DNA of 64,000 nucleotides from sequence record MG589383; one strand, written 5' to 3'. The DNA comes from Shigella phage phi25-307. Positions within the stretch are counted from its first letter, which is position 1; every line of letters begins with the position of its first letter. Below, piece after piece: positions 2,994 through 58,907 of the stretch. The translations under genes were made by a program, and so were the position numbers. The notes below the pieces were generated by a model, which had not been told where the DNA came from, did no database searches, and was given only the letters and a program-made list of their open reading frames with translations.

Positions 2994-4486
2994 TATAAAC
3001 CTGTCTGGGACCACGGTCCAAATACGTCTTCAAACGAATCCGCTTCTGTTTTATCAAAACGGAACCCTTTAATAATTGGAAGGAAAATACCTACAGTACC
3101 TTCACGGCCTTTAGAATGAACCCAACCATTACATTCACAATCAGCGATACGTCCAATTAATTTACCTTCACGAGCTTCGGTCATTAATCGTTCACGGTCT
3201 AAATCATGACGCTCGTCTAAAGGAATAAGAACCTTTACACCGTCAACTGTTTTATGAGTTGTATCTTTAAACCCTGAACCACAATCGGTTGTAATACGAC
3301 GACAACGTGATACGAGTTCGACACCACCTAATTTGTTAGGGTCTTTAGAGTGTTCATAGTATCCTACAACTTCTAAAGCGATATCAATAACTTCTTTAAA
3401 TTTAATTAGGTTCTTAGAGCGTTTGTTTTCCCAATATGAATCACGGTTTTTAAGGATAATACCTTCAAGACCTTGGTCAACATATTTTTTATAAACTACT
3501 TTAGCTTCGTCAAGATTACGAACTAACTGATTTTCAATTGGTTCAATTCGCTTAAAGCCTTCAGCCATATTTTCAAGAGCAGCAAAACGAACATCGTATT
3601 TCTGACCTTTAATTTTGCCGTCAGAATAGACTTCATCTAAAGGAACATAGTCCCAGGCTTGAAGAACCATACCTTCCGCTTCTTTAGGAGAAATAGTCCC
3701 TTGAAGAGATTTATTTGCTAAACCATTTGAAGTGCTACGGTCTGCAACTTGTACTTCTTCGGATTCTTCATTATCACCAAATAAGAACGACAGGTCATTT
3801 CCTGAGCTCACAGCCTTTTTAATATCGAATGAATGATAAACTAATTCACCGTCGATTAAAACCCCATTAGGGTGTCTTTCACGAGCTTCTTTAGTCATTT
3901 CCATTAGTTCATCCGCTAATAGAGTAAGACCATGGTATTCGTTACCAGCACGAGAAAAGAATTGAACACCATCATCGCGAACTTCAGCGAAACAACGAGC
4001 ACCATCTGCTTTTAATTGGGCAAATGCGGGCCATTTAATATTTTTAGTAATCAATTTCTCATCATATGCAGATGCTAACATCTGTGGTTGCAATTGAATA
4101 AGTCCAGGCCACACCTTATTCGCGATAGACACTGAAGCACCTACTTCAAGGTCGCGCATCATTACACGACGAAGGACTTCTACATCATCAGGTTTACCAT
4201 CAGCGATATAACCCATGAGCTCTTTAATTGCAGCATTACCGGTGAGTTTACGAGTGGCTAATGTGAACTCAATAAAATCCAACATGTCATCTAATTCAAG
4301 AAGACCATATGCTTGAGACCTTTCACCCGGTCCTGGCCATTTCTTAATATAATACTGGATACCACGTGCATATGTTAAACGATACACACGTTCAAGTAAT
4401 TTGTTGTCCTTATTTTTCTTAAGGATTTCTTGTTTTGTTTTAGTAGAACCGATCGCAGCTATTTGGTTTAAAATATCTAAAATCAT
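2993..4486 (-). CDS. 30: ATP-dependent DNA ligase, 497 aa
   Basis: Adenylation motif KADGAR; N-terminal region closely resembles T4 gp30 as remembered; size and position between alt and rIII match T4. Confidence 0.92.
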   Translation of the reverse strand: MILDILNQIAAIGSTKTKQEILKKNKDNKLLERVYRLTYARGIQYYIKKWPGPGERSQAYGLLELDDMLDFIEFTLATRKLTGNAAIKELMGYIADGKPDDVEVLRRVMMRDLEVGASVSIANKVWPGLIQLQPQMLASAYDEKLITKNIKWPAFAQLKADGARCFAEVRDDGVQFFSRAGNEYHGLTLLADELMEMTKEARERHPNGVLIDGELVYHSFDIKKAVSSGNDLSFLFGDNEESEEVQVADRSTSNGLANKSLQGTISPKEAEGMVLQAWDYVPLDEVYSDGKIKGQKYDVRFAALENMAEGFKRIEPIENQLVRNLDEAKVVYKKYVDQGLEGIILKNRDSYWENKRSKNLIKFKEVIDIALEVVGYYEHSKDPNKLGGVELVSRCRRITTDCGSGFKDTTHKTVDGVKVLIPLDERHDLDRERLMTEAREGKLIGRIADCECNGWVHSKGREGTVGIFLPIIKGFRFDKTEADSFEDVFGPWSQTGL

Positions 4487-7582: not shown

Positions 7583-7954
7583 TTATTTGATTTTTGTCCA
7601 CTTAGCTGAATCAATAACACCTTTTGCTTTAATCTTCTCGATTAATGACTCTGCACGATTTCTAGCATTTTCGTACCATACAACATCTTCAGAGTAACCA
7701 GTCTCTTCATCTTCGTAAGTTTTAGAACGAATACAACCATAAACTGTAGAATTCAGACGGTAAATTTCACCAGTGAAAAAGTTTTCGATTTCGATATGAT
7801 AACAAAAATCGTCTGAAGGGCCATCAGGAGTTGTACAATAAACTACATCACCTTGAACCGAACGAACCATCCACTGTAACTCGTTAACAACTTGAGATTT
7901 ATATCCATCATGGTCACGGCATTTAATTGTAGCATTTAAATTGATAGTGTTCAT
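7583..7954 (-). CDS. Hypothetical protein, 123 aa
   Basis: ORF downstream of the promoter at 7996-8024. Confidence 0.6.
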   Translation of the reverse strand: MNTINLNATIKCRDHDGYKSQVVNELQWMVRSVQGDVVYCTTPDGPSDDFCYHIEIENFFTGEIYRLNSTVYGCIRSKTYEDEETGYSEDVVWYENARNRAESLIEKIKAKGVIDSAKWTKIK

Positions 7955-7995
7955 TTTATTCTCCGGTTGTTTTATTGATTAGGTGGTACAAGTCT

Positions 7996-8024
7996 ATAGT
8001 AACACATCCTACAGGAGAGTAAAC
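7996..8024 (-). promoter_or_regulatory. Early promoter (GTTTAC, 17-nt spacer, TACTAT)
   Basis: Minus strand GTTTACTCTCCTGTAGGATGTGTTACTATAGAC. Confidence 0.5.
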
Positions 8025-8054
8025 ATCTTTTTTAAACTTTTTCTGCCCTAAACG

Positions 8055-8079
8055 CACAAAAGGGAGACCGAAGTCTCCC
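8055..8079 (-). terminator. Intrinsic terminator (GGGAGAC-UUCG-GUCUCCC plus UUUUGUG)
   Basis: Hairpin at 8062-8079, identical in sequence to the one at 23041-23058; lies just after the stop of ORF 8085..8264. Confidence 0.65.
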
Positions 8080-8084
8080 TAAAA

Positions 8085-8264
8085 TTATGCAACAACCTTT
8101 CCAAAACGAGAAGCATCATCTCGAAGAACTGCACGTGCTCTGCGCATGATCTTCTCAACGGTTTGATTAATACGAGAGTTCGACCCACGCTTGTATCCAG
8201 CGCGTTTAGAGGTACCATCAACTTTCTTTTCAACTGCTTTCTTTGCTTTAGCTTGTTTTGCCAT
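8085..8264 (-). CDS. Small basic Lys/Arg-rich protein, 59 aa (below the ORF-track size cut-off)
   Basis: Hand translation MAKQAKAKKAVEKKVDGTSKRAGYKRGSNSRINQTVEKIMRRARAVLRDDASRFGKVVA; ATG preceded by AAAGAGAA; stop is followed directly by the terminator. Preferred over track ORF 8048..8233, which is in another frame. Confidence 0.45.
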   Translation of the reverse strand: MAKQAKAKKAVEKKVDGTSKRAGYKRGSNSRINQTVEKIMRRARAVLRDDASRFGKVVA

Positions 8265-8531
8265 TATAAATTCTCTTTAAATGAAAATGCAGGACTTATT
8301 GTCATTGCCTGCTCAAGCCCTCAAGGGGAATATAGGTTTTGGATATTTAACGACAGGATAACCATAAACCCGTCATCATACCGACCACGACTTAGACAGA
8401 TAACCTTTTTCTGACGCGTGATAGTACAAAATACATTCAAGAGGTACACCGTAAAATTGTCGGGGCGGTACTTCAAAACATACCGATTCGCAAATCGATA
8501 ATCAGACAATTCGACGGCTCCTCGATTTAAC

Positions 8532-8780
8532 TTACTTCAGGGTAATAACAAAATGACGAACTGCTTTACGTGCTGCAGAAGCCAGAGGCTTAGCATATTT
8601 CAATTCATCTTTCTGGACCAGGATATCGCGAAGATCGGCTTGTGCTGGATTCAGATGTTTGAAATACTGTAAGATTTCAAGAGCTTCAGCTTCAACATCA
8701 ATAGATGCGCCGTAATTGTCATGGCCATTATTCCATGCATGGCGTTGCAGTTCAAGAGCGTGTTGTAATTGTTTAGTCAT
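8532..8780 (-). CDS. rIII: rIII lysis-inhibition accessory protein, 82 aa
   Basis: Same length as T4 rIII; sequence (QLQHALELQR...WNNGH.NYGASIDVEAEALEIL.YFKHLNPAQ) matches remembered T4 rIII; located upstream of gene 31 as in T4. Confidence 0.8.
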   Translation of the reverse strand: MTKQLQHALELQRHAWNNGHDNYGASIDVEAEALEILQYFKHLNPAQADLRDILVQKDELKYAKPLASAARKAVRHFVITLK

Positions 8781-8896
8781 TTTAAATTCTCAATTCGAGA
8801 TAATATTTAGTAGCCACGTTCTTCTGAATTTCACCTTCTTTCGACAAGTCTCTCAGTTGTAGGCTACCGCTTAGAAGAATGTTCTCTTCATATAGT

Positions 8897-8904
8897 TATT
8901 TATA
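8897..8904 (-). promoter_or_regulatory. Candidate late promoter TATAAATA upstream of rIII
   Basis: Minus strand reads GATATAAATAACT, immediately downstream of the gene 31 stop. Confidence 0.35.
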
Positions 8905-9237
8905 TCACTTATAAAGACACGGAATAGCTTTATAGTGGCATGTTACGAATTTCTGTTTAATTTCTTTAGGTTGTTTAAGTCCCAAAGCCACAAATGGATG
9001 CGGAACGTTTCGAATTTGACCAACTGGCAGAGAAGTCAAATCACCAACTTCAACAAAACCTTCAGGAACATCAGGACCTACAGAATGAACTACACATAGT
9101 TCAGGAACTTCACCTTGAACACGTTTACCAATCACAAGTCCTGATTCGGTAACTTCTTCATCACCTGCTTGAGCGGGTTCAGAAACCAGAATGACATATT
9201 CACCAACAGCACGAATTGGGAGTTGTACTTCAGACAT
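8905..9237 (-). CDS. 31: Co-chaperonin gp31 (GroES analogue), 110 aa
   Basis: Near-identical in remembered sequence to T4 gp31 ([34 protein letters not shown]...[11 protein letters not shown]). Confidence 0.9.
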
Positions 9238-9593: not shown

Positions 9594-10175
9594 TTATTCA
9601 CCACAAAAGTTTCGGATTTGTTCCCAATTCAGAGAACGAAGATTATTACGAGAGTACTGAATTACTTCAATACCGGCTTGTTTTAGAATGTCTGCCCAAT
9701 TTTCAGGAGATCTGTCATATAATTCTGCGTATACAACCTTTTTAATACCTGACTGCGTAATAGCTTTAGTGCAATCAGGACATGGAGAAAGTGTCGTATA
9801 CAACGTAGCACCTTCAATAGAATTACCTTTACGAGCTGCAAACAAAATGGCATTCAATTCAGCATGGATTTCGTTATTAGCAGACCATGCACTATGAGCG
9901 GCCCGATGTTCTTTAGCCAAAACAAAATTATCCACCCGTCCAAATGCTGTAGTGCCTTCTTTATGTCCGGCAACGATGACCGGGCTTGGTTTATTCTTCA
10001 ACCAACCGTTTTCGGATGCATGTTCACAACAGTTAACGCCACCTGCTGGTGAGCCATTATATCCAGTAGAGATAATGCGTCCATCTTTTTCAATGACGGC
10101 ACCAACTTTCCATGAACAACATTTTGATTCTTGAGAAATCAGATATGCAATCTGAAGGTATGTGCTAGCTTTCAT
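9594..10175 (-). CDS. cd: dCMP deaminase, 193 aa
   Basis: Zinc-binding deaminase motifs HAELNAI and PCPDCTKAI; same length as T4 Cd. Confidence 0.9.
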   Translation of the reverse strand: MKASTYLQIAYLISQESKCCSWKVGAVIEKDGRIISTGYNGSPAGGVNCCEHASENGWLKNKPSPVIVAGHKEGTTAFGRVDNFVLAKEHRAAHSAWSANNEIHAELNAILFAARKGNSIEGATLYTTLSPCPDCTKAITQSGIKKVVYAELYDRSPENWADILKQAGIEVIQYSRNNLRSLNWEQIRNFCGE

Positions 10176-11167
10176 TATTGAACCTTATTAATATAAGTTA
10201 ACAGCTCTTTAGTTTGTTCCCAACCGATGCACGCATCGGTAACGGAAACGCCATAGGACATATTATCAGAAATTTTTTGATTTCCTTCATGTAGGAATGA
10301 TTCTATCATAATTCCTTTGACCAAATCATTAGCTGCTAAATTTTTACCAATACCAATTTGATTGCTATAATACCCATCAGCGTTTGCGTGGCTACAGTCA
10401 ACCATTACATAATGATTCAGACCTAATGCACTTGCTTTGTTAGAAGCTTCTTGAATATCAGAAGAATGATAGTTCGGGCCGTTAGTCCCGCCACGCAATA
10501 CGATATGCGTATTCTGATTACCTTCAGCTTCAACAATGCCTACAGTACCATCGACGTCCATACCCATATACCGATGAGGCCAGGCGGCACTATACATCGC
10601 GTCTGTAGCTACTTTAATAGAACCATTGGTTGCGTTCTTGAAGCCTACGCACATCGGTAGACCTGAAGCAATTTCACGATGTGTCTGACTTTCAGTCGTA
10701 CGGGCGCCAATAGCAACCCATGAGAAAATACCAGAAAGATACTTAATCGTGAATGGGTCTAATACTTCAGTTGCTAATGGAAGTCCCATACGTAGAAGTT
10801 TACGACACAATGTTCGTGCAACTATAAGACCGTGGTTCATATCAAAACTTCCGTCAAGATATGGATCATTTACAAGACCTTTCCAACCTACGGTAGTTCG
10901 AGGCTTTTCAAAATAAACGCGCATCACTAACAGAACATTAGGAAGACGAGTTTGAAGTTCAGCCAGACGTTTGCCGTATTCAACAGCAGCAATAGGGTCA
11001 TGAATTGAACAAGGACCTACAACAATAAGTTTGCGTGGGTCTTCACCGTTCATAATCGAATTAACTTGTTCGCGATGAGAAGCCACTTGTGATGCGTAAG
11101 CTTCCGACAAAGGAATAATCTCAGCCAGTTCTTTTGGAGAAATAAGTTTTCTGACGATAGGTAACAT
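10175..11167 (-). CDS. 3-deoxy-D-arabino-heptulosonate-7-phosphate (DAHP) synthase, class I alpha (AroG/AroF/AroH-like), 330 aa
   Basis: Long runs shared with remembered E. coli AroG: VVGPCSIHDP, MRVYFEKPRTTVGWKGL, IGARTTESQ.HRE.ASGL, VGFKN, ILRGG, SHAN, VTDACIGWE. Stop overlaps the cd start as TAATG; own SD TAAGGA. Confidence 0.9.
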   Translation of the reverse strand: MLPIVRKLISPKELAEIIPLSEAYASQVASHREQVNSIMNGEDPRKLIVVGPCSIHDPIAAVEYGKRLAELQTRLPNVLLVMRVYFEKPRTTVGWKGLVNDPYLDGSFDMNHGLIVARTLCRKLLRMGLPLATEVLDPFTIKYLSGIFSWVAIGARTTESQTHREIASGLPMCVGFKNATNGSIKVATDAMYSAAWPHRYMGMDVDGTVGIVEAEGNQNTHIVLRGGTNGPNYHSSDIQEASNKASALGLNHYVMVDCSHANADGYYSNQIGIGKNLAANDLVKGIMIESFLHEGNQKISDNMSYGVSVTDACIGWEQTKELLTYINKVQ

Positions 11168-25743: not shown

Positions 25744-25990
25744 AAAGCTCGACTACCTCTTCGTTTTCAGCTTCAAATTGATCACGAGCGTCTTTATGAT
25801 AAAGAGCTAACAAACGATTAAACATTTTTCCATCGACGCCAAGCTCTTCTTTAGCACGAGTACGAATGTCTTTAATCAGTTCATTATAACCAGAAATTTT
25901 AAGTTTGTTATCGGAAGCTTCTTTGACTAGTTTAGCCAGTTCTTCACCATGCACATCTTGATTAAATTCAACTGCTTCTTTCTTAGCCAT
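25721..25990 (-). CDS. dsbA: Double-stranded DNA-binding protein DsbA, 89 aa
   Basis: Start trimmed to ATG 25990 (preceded by GAGG), giving the T4 DsbA length of 89 aa; position between 33 and rnh. Confidence 0.75.
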   Translation of the reverse strand: MAKKEAVEFNQDVHGEELAKLVKEASDNKLKISGYNELIKDIRTRAKEELGVDGKMFNRLLALYHKDARDQFEAENEEVVELYDTVFTK

Positions 25991-25997
25991 GTTTACC

Positions 25998-42421: not shown

Positions 42422-42442
42422 TTTGTGTTCCTCATGTTTCAG

Positions 42443-42479
42443 TAGGACTACTATACCATAATCCTACCTTGATGTAAAC
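42443..42479 (-). promoter_or_regulatory. PeSL-like early promoter cassette (family B)
   Basis: Minus strand GTTTACATCAAGGTAGGATTATGGTATAGTAGTCCTACTG. Confidence 0.55.
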
Positions 42480-42481
42480 AA

Positions 42482-42592
42482 TTAAATTACATTAAAATAT
42501 GTTAAAGCCAACCATGTTCCAGTGAACGAACATACGATGTAAAAACCCGTATCACAAATTGTTCTTAGTACAATAAGAAGCGCATTTTTCAT
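42482..42592 (-). CDS. Hydrophobic micro-protein, 36 aa (below ORF-track cut-off)
   Basis: Hand translation MKNALLIVLRTICDTGFYIVCSFTGTWLALTYFNVI; ATG overlaps the stop of the preceding micro-ORF (ATGA). Confidence 0.3.
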   Translation of the reverse strand: MKNALLIVLRTICDTGFYIVCSFTGTWLALTYFNVI

Positions 42593-42675
42593 AAGTACCT
42601 CAATGCAATTGAAAATATTATACAAATCATAGGGATACTAAGCAACCATATTCCGATCCACATTTTAGAGCTCAT
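42589..42675 (-). CDS. Hydrophobic micro-protein, 28 aa (below ORF-track cut-off)
   Basis: Hand translation MSSKMWIGIWLLSIPMICIIFSIALRYL; ATG overlaps the stop of ORF 42672..42935 (ATGA). Confidence 0.3.
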   Translation of the reverse strand: MSSKMWIGIWLLSIPMICIIFSIALRYL

Positions 42676-43496: not shown

Positions 43497-43784
43497 TCAT
43501 TCGACAGGATAAATGTCGGAAGATTCTTCAGTCTCAACAGTCCCAAGTTCGTCTTTACCATAGATACCTCTGATGTGTAGTTCGCCAAAATAAATGCGGT
43601 CACCTTCTTCAAGATATTCTGCATCTACAGGCGGAATTTCAATAACAACTTCGTCACATTCTAACCAGCCGTAGTGTGCATCGCCAGGATGTTTTACCAA
43701 TTTAGCACAATAAACTGATTTACACTTATGATGACCACGAAGATTAGCAATTTTGGATTCTGATACGTCAAATGGATGAATCAT
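43497..43784 (-). CDS. Hypothetical Cys/His-containing protein, 95 aa
   Basis: Start trimmed to ATG 43784, which follows the rIIB terminator and AGGGG; contains HHKCKSVYC. Confidence 0.5.
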   Translation of the reverse strand: MIHPFDVSESKIANLRGHHKCKSVYCAKLVKHPGDAHYGWLECDEVVIEIPPVDAEYLEEGDRIYFGELHIRGIYGKDELGTVETEESSDIYPVE

Positions 43785-43796
43785 AATTACCCCTAA

Positions 43797-43822
43797 AGAA
43801 AAAAAAGGGGACCGAAGTCCCC
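43797..43822 (-). terminator. Intrinsic terminator after rIIB
   Basis: GGGGAC-UUCG-GUCCCC hairpin followed by UUUUUUUU on the minus strand. Confidence 0.7.
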
Positions 43823-43827
43823 AATTA

Positions 43828-57194: not shown

Positions 57195-57222
57195 TTAGGT
57201 TTCTCCTCTGGTTGATAAAAGT

Positions 57223-57251
57223 ATAGTATCATCGTCGGTAGAGTTTGTACA
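57223..57251 (-). promoter_or_regulatory. Early promoter for modA (TGTACA, 17 nt, TACTAT)
   Basis: Minus strand GTGTACAAACTCTACCGACGATGATACTATAC, followed by GAGGAG and the ATG. Confidence 0.5.
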
Positions 57252-57380
57252 CTAAAAATTCAACATTTTTAAATGAATGATTTTGTTAGGTATTCGCGTT
57301 CTTGAAGTTCAGATTGACATGTCATGATAGACCTCCATTTAAAGATAAGCCTATCATAACACGAGAGGAGGGAATGTAAA

Positions 57381-57545
57381 CTACTTTTTAAGCTTTCCTA
57401 CTAAAGGTCCATCAGGTCCAGGTTGTTCTAACATGAATAAGGATGCTTTAAAAAGCAATGCCAACCCTTTCACCATTCGATACCATGTCTCAAAGTCTTT
57501 TTCCTTGATTTCTAGTAAGAATTTCTCTTTAAATTTCTCTTTCAT
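57381..57545 (-). CDS. Hypothetical protein, 54 aa (below ORF-track cut-off)
   Basis: Hand translation MKEKFKEKFLLEIKEKDFETWYRMVKGLALLFKASLFMLEQPGPDGPLVGKLKK; ATG overlaps the upstream stop (ATGA). Confidence 0.4.
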   Translation of the reverse strand: MKEKFKEKFLLEIKEKDFETWYRMVKGLALLFKASLFMLEQPGPDGPLVGKLKK

Positions 57546-58576: not shown

Positions 58577-58804
58577 TTAACAGCAAACAACTTCTTCAGC
58601 ATCGTAAGCATTAATTGTTCCTCGAACAAAACGAACACCACCGTCATCCCAACGGATTTCGGCATTAAATTTGACGTCTTCACCATCCATCATGAACGAG
58701 TGTACGACTACATCATCATAATATCCAAGGCCGTATTTCAATGAAACTTCTTGAGCAATCAAAGCACCTAATGTGTTATTAGGTTTAATCCAACGATTTA
58801 ACAT
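58577..58804 (-). CDS. Hypothetical protein, 75 aa
   Basis: Start trimmed to ATG 58804, preceded by AAGAGGAGAA and the promoter at 58833-58862. Confidence 0.5.
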   Translation of the reverse strand: MLNRWIKPNNTLGALIAQEVSLKYGLGYYDDVVVHSFMMDGEDVKFNAEIRWDDGGVRFVRGTINAYDAEEVVCC

Positions 58805-58832
58805 ATTGTTCTCCTCTTGAGTAAGTAAGAAT

Positions 58833-58862
58833 ATCTTAACACAGTTTTTAGCGGTTGTAAAC
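58833..58862 (-). promoter_or_regulatory. Early promoter (TTTACA, 17 nt, TAAGAT)
   Basis: Minus strand GTTTACAACCGCTAAAAACTGTGTTAAGAT. Confidence 0.45.
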
Positions 58863-58871
58863 TGTAGAAAC

Positions 58872-58899
58872 AAAAAAAAAGGAATCCCGAAGGATTCCT
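58872..58899 (-). terminator. Intrinsic terminator after soc
   Basis: GGAAUCC-UUCG-GGAUUCC hairpin followed by a 9-nt U-run on the minus strand. Confidence 0.75.
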
Positions 58900-58907
58900 T
58901 AAATTAT

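Follow-up and report, generated by a model that had tools for sequence, protein, structure and literature searches.

A predicted modular RNA with a covarying H-type pseudoknot in the rIII-30.9 spacer of T4-like phages

Results

Genomic context of the rIII-30.9 spacer

In Shigella phage phi25-307 (MG589383), of which a stretch of 64,000 nucleotides (nt) was analyzed (hereafter the window), the genes rIII and 30.9 are separated by a spacer of 267 nt that runs from the rIII stop to the 30.9 start (8265-8531). Comparison with related phages shows that this interval bears the marks of a noncoding, sense-strand, conserved, covarying, and modular RNA, one module of which, X, is predicted to form a self-contained H-type pseudoknot. 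From the sequence comparisons below, the interval is very probably a functional structured RNA.

This region of the window comes from an RB69-like T-even phage (Mosigvirus), with DCP548 as its top match (99.4%; RB69, 94%). The upstream cistron, rIII (8532-8780, minus strand), is an 82-amino-acid (aa) open reading frame (ORF) that matches PHROG 1457, a lysis inhibition accessory protein (E = 8e-42), and is annotated rIII in RB69. It lies on the same transcript as gene 30.9 (8085-8264, minus strand), which encodes a basic 59-aa protein of PHROG 1427 (unknown function), annotated gp30.9 in RB69. An intrinsic terminator, GGGAGACUUCGGUCUCCC-UUUU (~8062-8083, minus strand), lies 3' of 30.9; its hairpin aligns with the terminator stem-loops of unrelated Rfam small RNA models, and terminators are annotated at the equivalent position in phage ATK47. 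Gene 31 (8905-9237) and gene 30.8 (7583-7954), both on the minus strand, flank this arrangement.

The spacer had been singled out for its length and for a raised local GC content. Its length holds up: on a crude gene map it is the longest ORF-free gap in the window, at 267 nt (median, 15.5 nt), and of the 96 gaps just 2 are longer than 250 nt. The rise in GC content, from 0.377 in the window to 0.401 in the spacer, is marginal. A consensus scan for -35/-10 hexamers at suitable spacing called no sigma-70-type promoter inside the gap, its promoter-like sites lying upstream of rIII, within the rIII coding sequence, and at the 30.8 start. By eye, the gene strand of the gap shows no T4 promoter of the early (GTTTAC..TATAAT), middle (MotA box), or late (TATAAATA) class, the canonical early promoter being located instead in the 30.9-30.8 gap, and a scan for terminator-like sites across 7900-8950 made no call. 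Because neither a promoter nor a terminator was called in the gap, transcription would be expected to read through from the promoters upstream of rIII to the terminator that follows 30.9.

The spacer is conserved as noncoding sequence

We compared 40 gaps, from 12 GenBank phages, 24 IMG/VR loci, and 4 further genera. The rIII-30.9 gap is present in all T4-like phages examined, with lengths from 78 to 398 nt; that of T4 is shorter by ~55 nt, and PM107-type phages carry an additional insertion of ~140 nt. The original prediction saw no convincing ORF here, and none emerged. The longest in the window spacer has 62 aa and a TTG start, and frames do not survive among close relatives, AV112 differing from the window by 1-nt insertions or deletions within the gap and RB69 and ATK47 by one of 4 nt (these relatives are ~98% and 94% identical). 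In view of such frame-breaking changes, the small ORFs annotated in the gap in a few records are probably spurious, which amounts to a database correction.

Two coding proposals were considered and rejected. An AUGAUG in the window begins a 10-codon ORF that might be taken for a leader peptide, and the records of T2 and PM107 show annotated ORFs here, but the frames differ among the window, RB69, T4, and KMB19. An N-terminal extension of 30.9, annotated at 219 nt in PST and T2, hinges on one additional A; in the window it is out of frame, and RB69 has no ATG for it.

The 30.9-proximal 115 nt of the spacer, which hold the modules X, Z, and T described below, are 94.9% identical to T4 and 90.5% to IME08. 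The corresponding values are 83.5% and 81.3% for rIII and 90.6% and 70.2% for 30.9. Since this noncoding block is more conserved than its coding flanks, selection acts on the nucleotide sequence itself. Small ORFs called in the gap by some GenBank records would suit a dead gene, and the original prediction had offered the remnant of a deleted gene as one reading; that reading fails, with no conserved frame and a constraint stronger than that on the neighboring genes.

Modular architecture of the spacer

Reading the 40 gaps on the gene strand reveals the same short elements in varied combinations and orders, which we named A, M, X, Z, T, W, and Y. The window shares the order A-M-X-Z-T with RB69, T2, and IME08. 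T4 has A-X-Z-T, and CE1 is reduced to X-Z-T. Klebsiella-type phages display X-Y-Z-T, the Moon and Kosakonia types Y-X-Z with or without T, and the remaining phages Z-Y-X or Z-X. Module X was found in all 40 gaps. Motif searches and the X covariance model located no further copies of the modules in the 64-kilobase (kb) window, each occurring once, so that they do not behave there as a dispersed cassette or repeat with multiple genome copies.

Module X is predicted to be an H-type pseudoknot

The best-supported element of the spacer is one that the original prediction had not seen. Module X (8331-8376, minus strand) consists of a stem S1, in which AUGAC(G)GG (8376-8369) pairs with CC(U)GUCGU (8357-8350), and a stem S2, in which 7 nt of the hairpin loop, UAUGGUU (8366-8360), pair downstream with AACC(U)AUA (8338-8331). 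The third loop, UAAAUAUCCAA (8349-8339), which lies between the stems, is conserved and rich in A.

The sequence of S2 is wholly replaced between phages, while its complementarity is kept: the two strands read GAAAGUU/AACUUUC in KMB19, GUUGGUU/AACCAAC in locus L035, AGUAGUU/AACUACU in L045, UUGUGAG/CUCACAA in the Moon-type loci L052 and L059, and CAAGGUU/AACCUUG in L055. In a hand-curated alignment of 29 distinct sequences, controlled by shuffling and by sliding the pairing partners by 1-3 columns, 89% of cells pair, versus 66% in shuffles, and 12 of 15 pairs show double-sided changes. The covariation score is 0.544 against 0.142 in shuffled alignments, a value reached in 0 of 500 shuffles, and slid controls score 0.05-0.09. 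Because this alignment had been fitted to the structure, the count was repeated on a sequence-only MAFFT alignment, which gave 0.317 against 0.125 when shuffled (again 0/500), with slid values of at most 0.14. Alignment with related phages, which had been proposed as a check on the hairpins, hence finds a conserved structure with covariation far above controls.

A U.G pair in X is conserved in 24 of the 29 sequences. As this pair would become an A.C mismatch on the opposite strand, the RNA is assigned to the gene strand. A covariance model built from the sequence-only alignment found a single match in the window (8327-8382, minus strand; 72 bits, E = 3e-16), with the runner-up at 11 bits.

Within the third loop, the three A's of the UAAAUA segment are invariant or nearly so in the 29 sequences. 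By analogy with the 'CGUUAAAUA' segment of the pistol ribozyme, the loop most likely lies in the S1 minor groove and forms A-minor triples. The sequence 3' of S2 is variable (UU, GUU, GGUG, GGAG, or AAGU), as is the placement of the module, which lies ~65 to 300 nt from the 30.9 start and 2 to 200 nt from the rIII stop.

The strand-specific U.G pairs and the covarying pseudoknot are signatures of RNA. They argue against a DNA-level element such as an origin, a protein-binding site, or a recombination cassette, a reading for which an annotated 10-nt "ori type 2 repeat" immediately upstream of 30.9 in ATK47 might be cited, together with a module shuffling that resembles recombination between regulatory cassettes (compare the promoter-early stem-loops, PeSLs, discussed below). 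The modules contain no promoter and are not repeated in the window, and both a DNA element and a dead gene are at odds with conservation above that of the coding flanks; the broken frames among close relatives count further against the latter. Taken together with chance hairpins, these explanations are extremely improbable.

Module X occurs outside the rIII-30.9 locus

Pattern scans covered IMG/VR, metagenomes, and genomes; once filtered with the X covariance model, their matches comprised the T4-like loci that were expected, plus three additional ones. The first, L066, is a 55-kb contig of a phage that is not T4-like and has a portal gene and a terminase gene of its own as well as HNH endonucleases and a group I intron; here X (57 bits) takes up all 58 nt between tRNA-Asp and tRNA-Pro, two members of a cluster of 12 transfer RNA (tRNA) genes. 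The second, L125, a contig labelled as a Bacilli metagenome-assembled genome, has a 34-bit X between tRNA-Gly and tRNA-Thr in a 10-tRNA cluster, and this copy carries new compensatory pairs. On the third, L111, an AT-rich contig of 1.7 kb, an ORF stop is followed by W and then X. A looser pattern scan also gave a marginal intergenic match of 22 bits (L182), while further candidates (L218, L157, and L166) fall within ORFs or score 25-33 bits and were discounted as probably false. On L066, the group I intron (59 bits; 3462-3704 and surroundings) lies beside or inside the terminase region, HNH-type endonuclease ORFs are interspersed between the tRNAs, and several tRNA-like spacers were not called by ARAGORN.

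The presence of X alone between tRNA genes in an unrelated phage shows that it is a self-contained unit, set between two functional RNAs, and not a device specific to 30.9. These copies could also mean that the modules, above all X, are excised in the manner of tRNAs and of the T4 RNAs RNAC and RNAD and then, as stable folded molecules, work in trans as an aptamer or decoy for a host or phage protein, and not by base pairing. Established tRNA 5' and 3' processing should free an X of ~55 nt in L066, and a second copy lies in the L125 tRNA cluster. Such an RNA would be indifferent to module order, its loops would be conserved while stems vary freely, as is seen here, and small stable RNAs of unknown role are known from the T4 tRNA region (PMC3014915; PMC9697503). 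On the other hand, the literature searched contains no report of an RNA species from the rIII-30.9 locus, the modules lie within messenger RNA (mRNA) between two cistrons in all T4-like phages examined, no sigma-70-type promoter or terminator was called in the window gap, and X offers no exposed, conserved single strand from which base pairing could be seeded. We regard release of a trans-acting RNA as the main alternative reading, possible but distinctly short of probable.

Modules A, M, Z, and T and the 30.9 ribosome-binding site

The three hairpins named in the original prediction were located where it had placed them (8289-8312, 8318-8328, and 8481-8500) and are real, although they are not the key feature of the spacer. 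The last is enclosed by module A (8433-8527, minus strand), a long irregular stem of ~85 nt composed of GAGG.GCCGU.GAAUUGUC with GACAAUUU.ACGGU...CCUC. As RNA, the enclosed hairpin reads UAUCGAUU-UGCG-AAUCGGUA (at the DNA level, TATCGATT-TGCG-AATCGGTA). In 11 T-even-type sequences, RNAalifold identifies four pairs in A with compensatory double changes (columns 84/149, 90/143, 101/116, and 102/115): GAAUUGUC/GACAAUUU in the window and AV112 corresponds to GAACUGUC/GRCAGUUU in the other sequences, and their AUCGAUU/AAUCGGU to AAUGAUU/AAUCAUU. The minimum free energy (MFE) fold of the window's spacer predicts the same outer stems, with the region of the enclosed hairpin paired differently. A is restricted to gaps of the Tequatro-, Mosig-, and Dhakavirus type. 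It contains a GGAG motif (8518-8521) that, by analogy with the T4 literature, is a putative RegB cleavage site.

Module M (8395-8415, minus strand) is a hairpin, GUCAGA-AAAAGGUUA-UCUGUC, with a conserved loop. In LF82-1 and L030, its stem reads CAGC/GCUG in place of CAGA/UCUG around an unchanged loop, and as this is the only covarying pair, support for M is weak. M is absent in T4 and nested inside another hairpin in L051. Its loop and 3' arm (AAAAGGUUAUCUGUC) are similar to those of S1 in X (8350-8376; AUGGUUAUCCUGUC); judging from this similarity, M may be a partial duplicate of X. The GGUU of M could compete with X S2 for the AACC strand, T4 being without M.

Module Z (8314-8330, minus strand) is a mini-hairpin, (G)U(A/U)CCCC-UUGA-GGGCUUG, with the conserved flanks GUACCC..GGGCUUG; the DNA-level hairpin CCCCTTGAGGG (8318-8328) falls within it. 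In most gaps, Z lies immediately before the last hairpin or immediately after the rIII stop. Its stem of 3-4 base pairs (bp) varies (CCUC..GAGG; CCCU.UCG.AGGG), and sequence conservation outweighs covariation.

Module T (8289-8312, minus strand) is the hairpin GCAGG-[CAAUGACAAUAAGU]-CCUGC. The 14-nt loop, CAAUGNCAAUAAG, is conserved, and the stem switches to (GA)ACUGG/CCAGU(UC) in L048, L053, and L055 (Gelderlandvirus type), which alters two pairs on both sides. Downstream of the hairpin the sequence reads AUUUUCAUUU. With a 5-bp stem and a 14-nt loop, T makes a poor terminator; it does not have the features of an intrinsic terminator, and the terminator scan made no call. In many phages, T is replaced by a 59-nt hairpin, "long T".

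Between T and gene 30.9, a U-rich segment with UUUUC (8271-8287, minus strand) can pair with GAGAA in the Shine-Dalgarno region of 30.9, and the MFE fold contains a 6-bp helix, AUUUUC/GAGAAU, over this region. Other phages have UUCUCC...GGAAGA at the equivalent place. Going by this folding model, the helix may regulate 30.9.

A pseudoknot followed by such elements recalls a riboswitch, in which X would be a triplex pseudoknot that binds a ligand, as in preQ1-I or SAM-II, with T and the U-rich tract or the anti-Shine-Dalgarno helix as the expression platform for 30.9 and downstream 30.x genes. X is indeed a small H-type pseudoknot with an A-rich loop, and in T-even phages, where ~65-85 nt separate it from the 30.9 start downstream, it precedes a hairpin, a U-rich tract, and a helix that pairs with the Shine-Dalgarno region. 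In many phages, however, W and Y separate X from Z and T by up to ~180 nt, the order may be Z-X, and copies between tRNAs have no downstream ORF. There is no covarying alternative pairing of X with T or the Shine-Dalgarno region, no match to an Rfam riboswitch family, and T is a poor terminator that the scan left uncalled. The gaps thus lack an aptamer at a conserved position beside a terminator or Shine-Dalgarno helix with mutually exclusive pairings, and we consider the riboswitch reading highly improbable.

Related modules and leader elements

A 58-nt hairpin before rIII (8810-8867) is homologous to long T (69 of 93 positions identical), with compensatory differences between the stems (GUAGCC/GGCUAC in the rIII leader versus GGGAGC/GCUCCC in long T). 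This homology suggests that a leader cassette has been reused before different cistrons. The loop of the rIII hairpin also holds the -35 element of a predicted rIII early promoter (TTCAGA-17-TATTAT).

Two further modules are absent from the window. Y is a highly conserved element of ~135 nt in the rIII-30.9 gaps of Klebsiella-, Moon-, Kosakonia-, and PM107-type phages (L035:948-1085 and the gaps of L056, Moon, and L008, PM107). RNAalifold predicts 37 pairs, of which 16 show compensatory changes, and an apparent loop-loop (kissing) pairing, CGAUGG/CCAUCG, covaries as CUAUGG/CCAUAG, UGAUGG/CCAUCA, and CAAUGA/UCAUUG. Without an Rfam match, Y looks like a second undescribed phage RNA with a complex fold. 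The idea that A is a reduced Y, raised by a 3' segment that looks similar by eye, was rejected, as the Y model gives the A region -1.8 bits with filters off.

W was described from the sequences alone in T4 (L005), ATK47 (L001), IME08 (L009), KMB19 (L012), and L111. It comprises a GGAG and, 3' of it, a small hairpin whose 3-bp stem covaries (CAC/GUG, UGC/GCA, CGC/GCG, or AGC/GCU) around a conserved loop, URCCWWAGU, and is often found immediately 3' of the rIII stop. W may represent a RegB site with its structural context.

Surrounding features

A regulatory region with a terminator, early promoters, and RegB sites was reportedly described by Truncaite et al. in 2006. The 30.9-30.8 gap (7955-8084, minus strand) contains the strong intrinsic terminator GGGAGACUUCGGUCUCCC-UUUU and a T4 early promoter with an A-rich UP element and GTTTAC..TACTAT; the Shine-Dalgarno region of 30.8 contains GGAG. 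Placing the reported region with the 30.7 primer in PMC9409239 and the window sequence, we rejected its equation with the rIII-30.9 spacer; it fits the 30.9-30.8 and 30.8-30.7 gaps instead, and the 30.9-30.8 gap is probably the regulatory region concerned.

The 31-rIII spacer (8781-8904, minus strand) opens with TATAAATA, the T4 late-promoter consensus. On the plus strand, TATAAATT (8265-8272) matches seven of the eight positions of this consensus and overlaps the 30.9 start on the opposite strand; going by its sequence, it could drive a late antisense transcript over the spacer.

Although gp30.9 carries the label "1,4-alpha-glucan (glycogen) branching enzyme, GH-13-type" in AV112, PHB12, the T4 clone T4_3t3, and others, this 59-aa protein has no Pfam match and belongs to a PHROG of unknown function, which makes the label an annotation error. 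Downstream of cd, a 330-aa ORF (10175-11167, minus strand) has an ATK47 homolog annotated as DAHP synthase (AroG-like); it is an auxiliary metabolic gene, in place of which RB69 has cd.2. Further ORF-free gaps of 200-254 nt on the crude gene map (25744-25997, 42422-42671, 57195-57432, 58687-58907, and 43625-43827) may hold small genes, promoters, or more structured RNAs.

Discussion

A possible role in the 31-rIII-30.9 unit

A structured leader and a small RNA, both put forward in the original prediction, remain live readings of what is now seen as a structured sense-strand RNA with compensatory changes. We tentatively favor a role for the modules as cis-acting punctuation with a part in 30.9 translation, a proposal drawn from sequence to which we would give slightly less than an even chance. 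The interval would be the intercistronic spacer of a 31-rIII-30.9 unit, carrying in its minus-strand RNA the autonomous modules A, M, X, Z, and T, five in all, and beyond them a helix able to cover the 30.9 ribosome-binding site. As compact domains, the modules could present barriers or recognition points to scanning RNase E, to 3' exonucleases, possibly to RNase P, or to a binding protein. They would thereby define processed ends, and the stability of the flanking units would be set separately, these being the rIII and 30.9 segments here and tRNAs elsewhere. The last hairpin, T, and the anti-Shine-Dalgarno helix would tune 30.9 translation from read-through transcripts. A punctuation role fits both contexts in which X occurs, between cistrons and between tRNAs.

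Several points weigh against this proposal. The folding check suggested by the original prediction gave an MFE of -65.5 kcal/mol for the spacer (z = -1.07), with 23 of 200 shuffles equally or more stable; as this is not significant, folding energy was dropped as evidence, and the case for structure rests on the comparison with relatives. There, the main X alignment was fitted to the structure by hand, a weakness mitigated by the sequence-only alignment. Modules A and M must be dispensable, because T4 lacks M and CE1 and LF82-1 lack A. The widely varying distances of X from its neighbors mean that it is not a fixed-geometry operator for either gene. A nuclease barrier would not obviously need so strongly conserved a loop, and a released, trans-acting RNA would account for the X copies in tRNA clusters at least as well. 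Every functional step in the punctuation proposal is one that we infer from sequence.

T4 is the reference phage for RNA biology, and the rIII-30.9 locus supplies a candidate RNA that is present in T4 itself. X has covariation support of the kind normally required to define an RNA family, and its pseudoknot is defined well enough for testing with simple mutants. The shuffling of modules between genera, the placement of X between tRNA genes, and a core shared with a known ribozyme suggest a general, unexplored way of organizing or protecting the polycistronic RNAs of phages. A bolder view, which we think unlikely, would see in the locus an unrecognized small-RNA array of the T4 group, with X as a new and widespread class tied evolutionarily to the pistol fold and serving as tRNA-like punctuation recognized by a host tRNA-processing enzyme or as a released aptamer for a protein or ligand. 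If this were true, X would rank with the first small RNAs of T4, other than tRNAs, to have a function, and its sister module Y (~135 nt) would be a second new RNA with a complex fold in related phages.

Comparison with known RNAs

An Rfam scan, suggested in the original prediction, assigned neither X nor Y nor any other module to a family, whether the interval was searched within 1 kb, as a 141-nt subwindow, or in 14 related loci. Matches of Rfam 15 in the gap are at chance level and below gathering thresholds (DdR11 and MIR4221, 15 bits each), and our literature search found nothing on RNA from the rIII-30.9 gap. According to a 2010 review, no T4 riboswitch or trans-acting small RNA had been functionally characterized, and related genomes might suggest candidates (PMC3014915).

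An H-type pseudoknot in T-even mRNA is already known from gene 32 of T4, T2, and RB69, where it serves as an autoregulatory mRNA-leader operator that is conserved between T4 and RB69, lies 67 nt from the start codon, and nucleates gp32 binding (PMC3014915). Like X, it stands upstream of an A/U-rich sequence of the UUAAA type. It differs in its locus, in its fixed distance, and in having no sequence similarity to X, which is found at variable distances and also outside mRNAs.

Two other comparisons concern RNAs of similar size or placement. RNAC and RNAD (species 1 and 2) are structured non-tRNA phage RNAs that are cotranscribed and processed with tRNAs, a setting that X shares in L066 and L125, whereas in T4 and the window X sits between protein genes. 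As homologs of X they were rejected, showing no resemblance by eye, and the Y model has no match in the T4 tRNA region. The preQ1-I and SAM-II riboswitches resemble X in size (~45-55 nt for X), in H-type topology, and in the placement of an A-rich loop along stem 1. X departs from them in having neither an Rfam match nor a fixed expression platform, and in its copies between tRNA genes.

The PeSL cassettes of RB49-type phages, reportedly described by Arbiol et al. in 2010, are, like the modules here, short noncoding structured cassettes in T4-type genomes that are shuffled among relatives. PeSLs are dispersed repeats with a strong sigma-70 promoter and a terminator, whereas the present modules are locus-specific, single-copy in the window, and without a promoter.

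The closest structural likeness is to the pistol ribozyme, whose architecture has been described and which is commonly associated with phages, as is X (PMC4604425). The env25 pistol reads CGUGG-UUAGGG-CCACG-UUAAAUAG-UUGC-UUAAG-CCCUAA-GCG..., in which CCCUAA pairs with the P1 loop; the AAA of J1-2 forms A-minor triples with P1, and P1 with the pseudoknot has been described as a nucleation core (PMC6101554). X likewise has a 5' hairpin whose loop pairs downstream in a pseudoknot of 6-7 bp stacked on the hairpin, and CG-UUAAAUA leaves P1 in both RNAs, with the AAA of J1-2 present in each (CGU-UAAAUA in X; CACG-UUAAAUAG in env25). The hairpins differ in that the P1 stem of X has 8-9 bp with a bulged G, as opposed to 5 bp in pistol, and that 7 of 11 loop nucleotides are paired, as opposed to 6 of 6. 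X further lacks the P2 and P3 helices, the 3' strand of S2 following directly on a linker of 11-13 nt, and it has neither the fixed-length GU cleavage junction with the 10 highly conserved nucleotides of pistol nor the conserved catalytic purines. A P2 pairing could not be drawn in T4 or in the window, and the only P3 candidate, Z, is absent or elsewhere in many loci; X plus Z as a complete pistol ribozyme was rejected for want of a drawable P2. The Rfam Pistol model (RF02679) gave no match on the 1-kb and 141-nt queries (E <= 10), on six related loci (E <= 1), or on eight others (E <= 0.1).

Descent from pistol, with X as a degenerate relic or as the core of a variant or split ribozyme with its cleavage domain at another place, would explain why a P1 loop engaged in the pseudoknot is followed by 'CGUUAAAUA', identical to the P1 end and J1-2 of env25. 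It would have to accommodate the lack of P2, of the obligatory P3, and of conservation at the positions equivalent to A32, G33, G40, and G42, and a decaying relic is hard to reconcile with strong purifying selection and covariation across genera. This descent is very unlikely. As X shares the hairpin, pseudoknot, and linker of pistol, and with them the A-triple core predicted for it, but not the catalytic domain or an Rfam match, it is better described as structurally core-like than as a member of the family. An H-type pseudoknot and a structured mRNA spacer are RNAs of a known kind; what is new is an unannotated RNA element in a long-studied phage.

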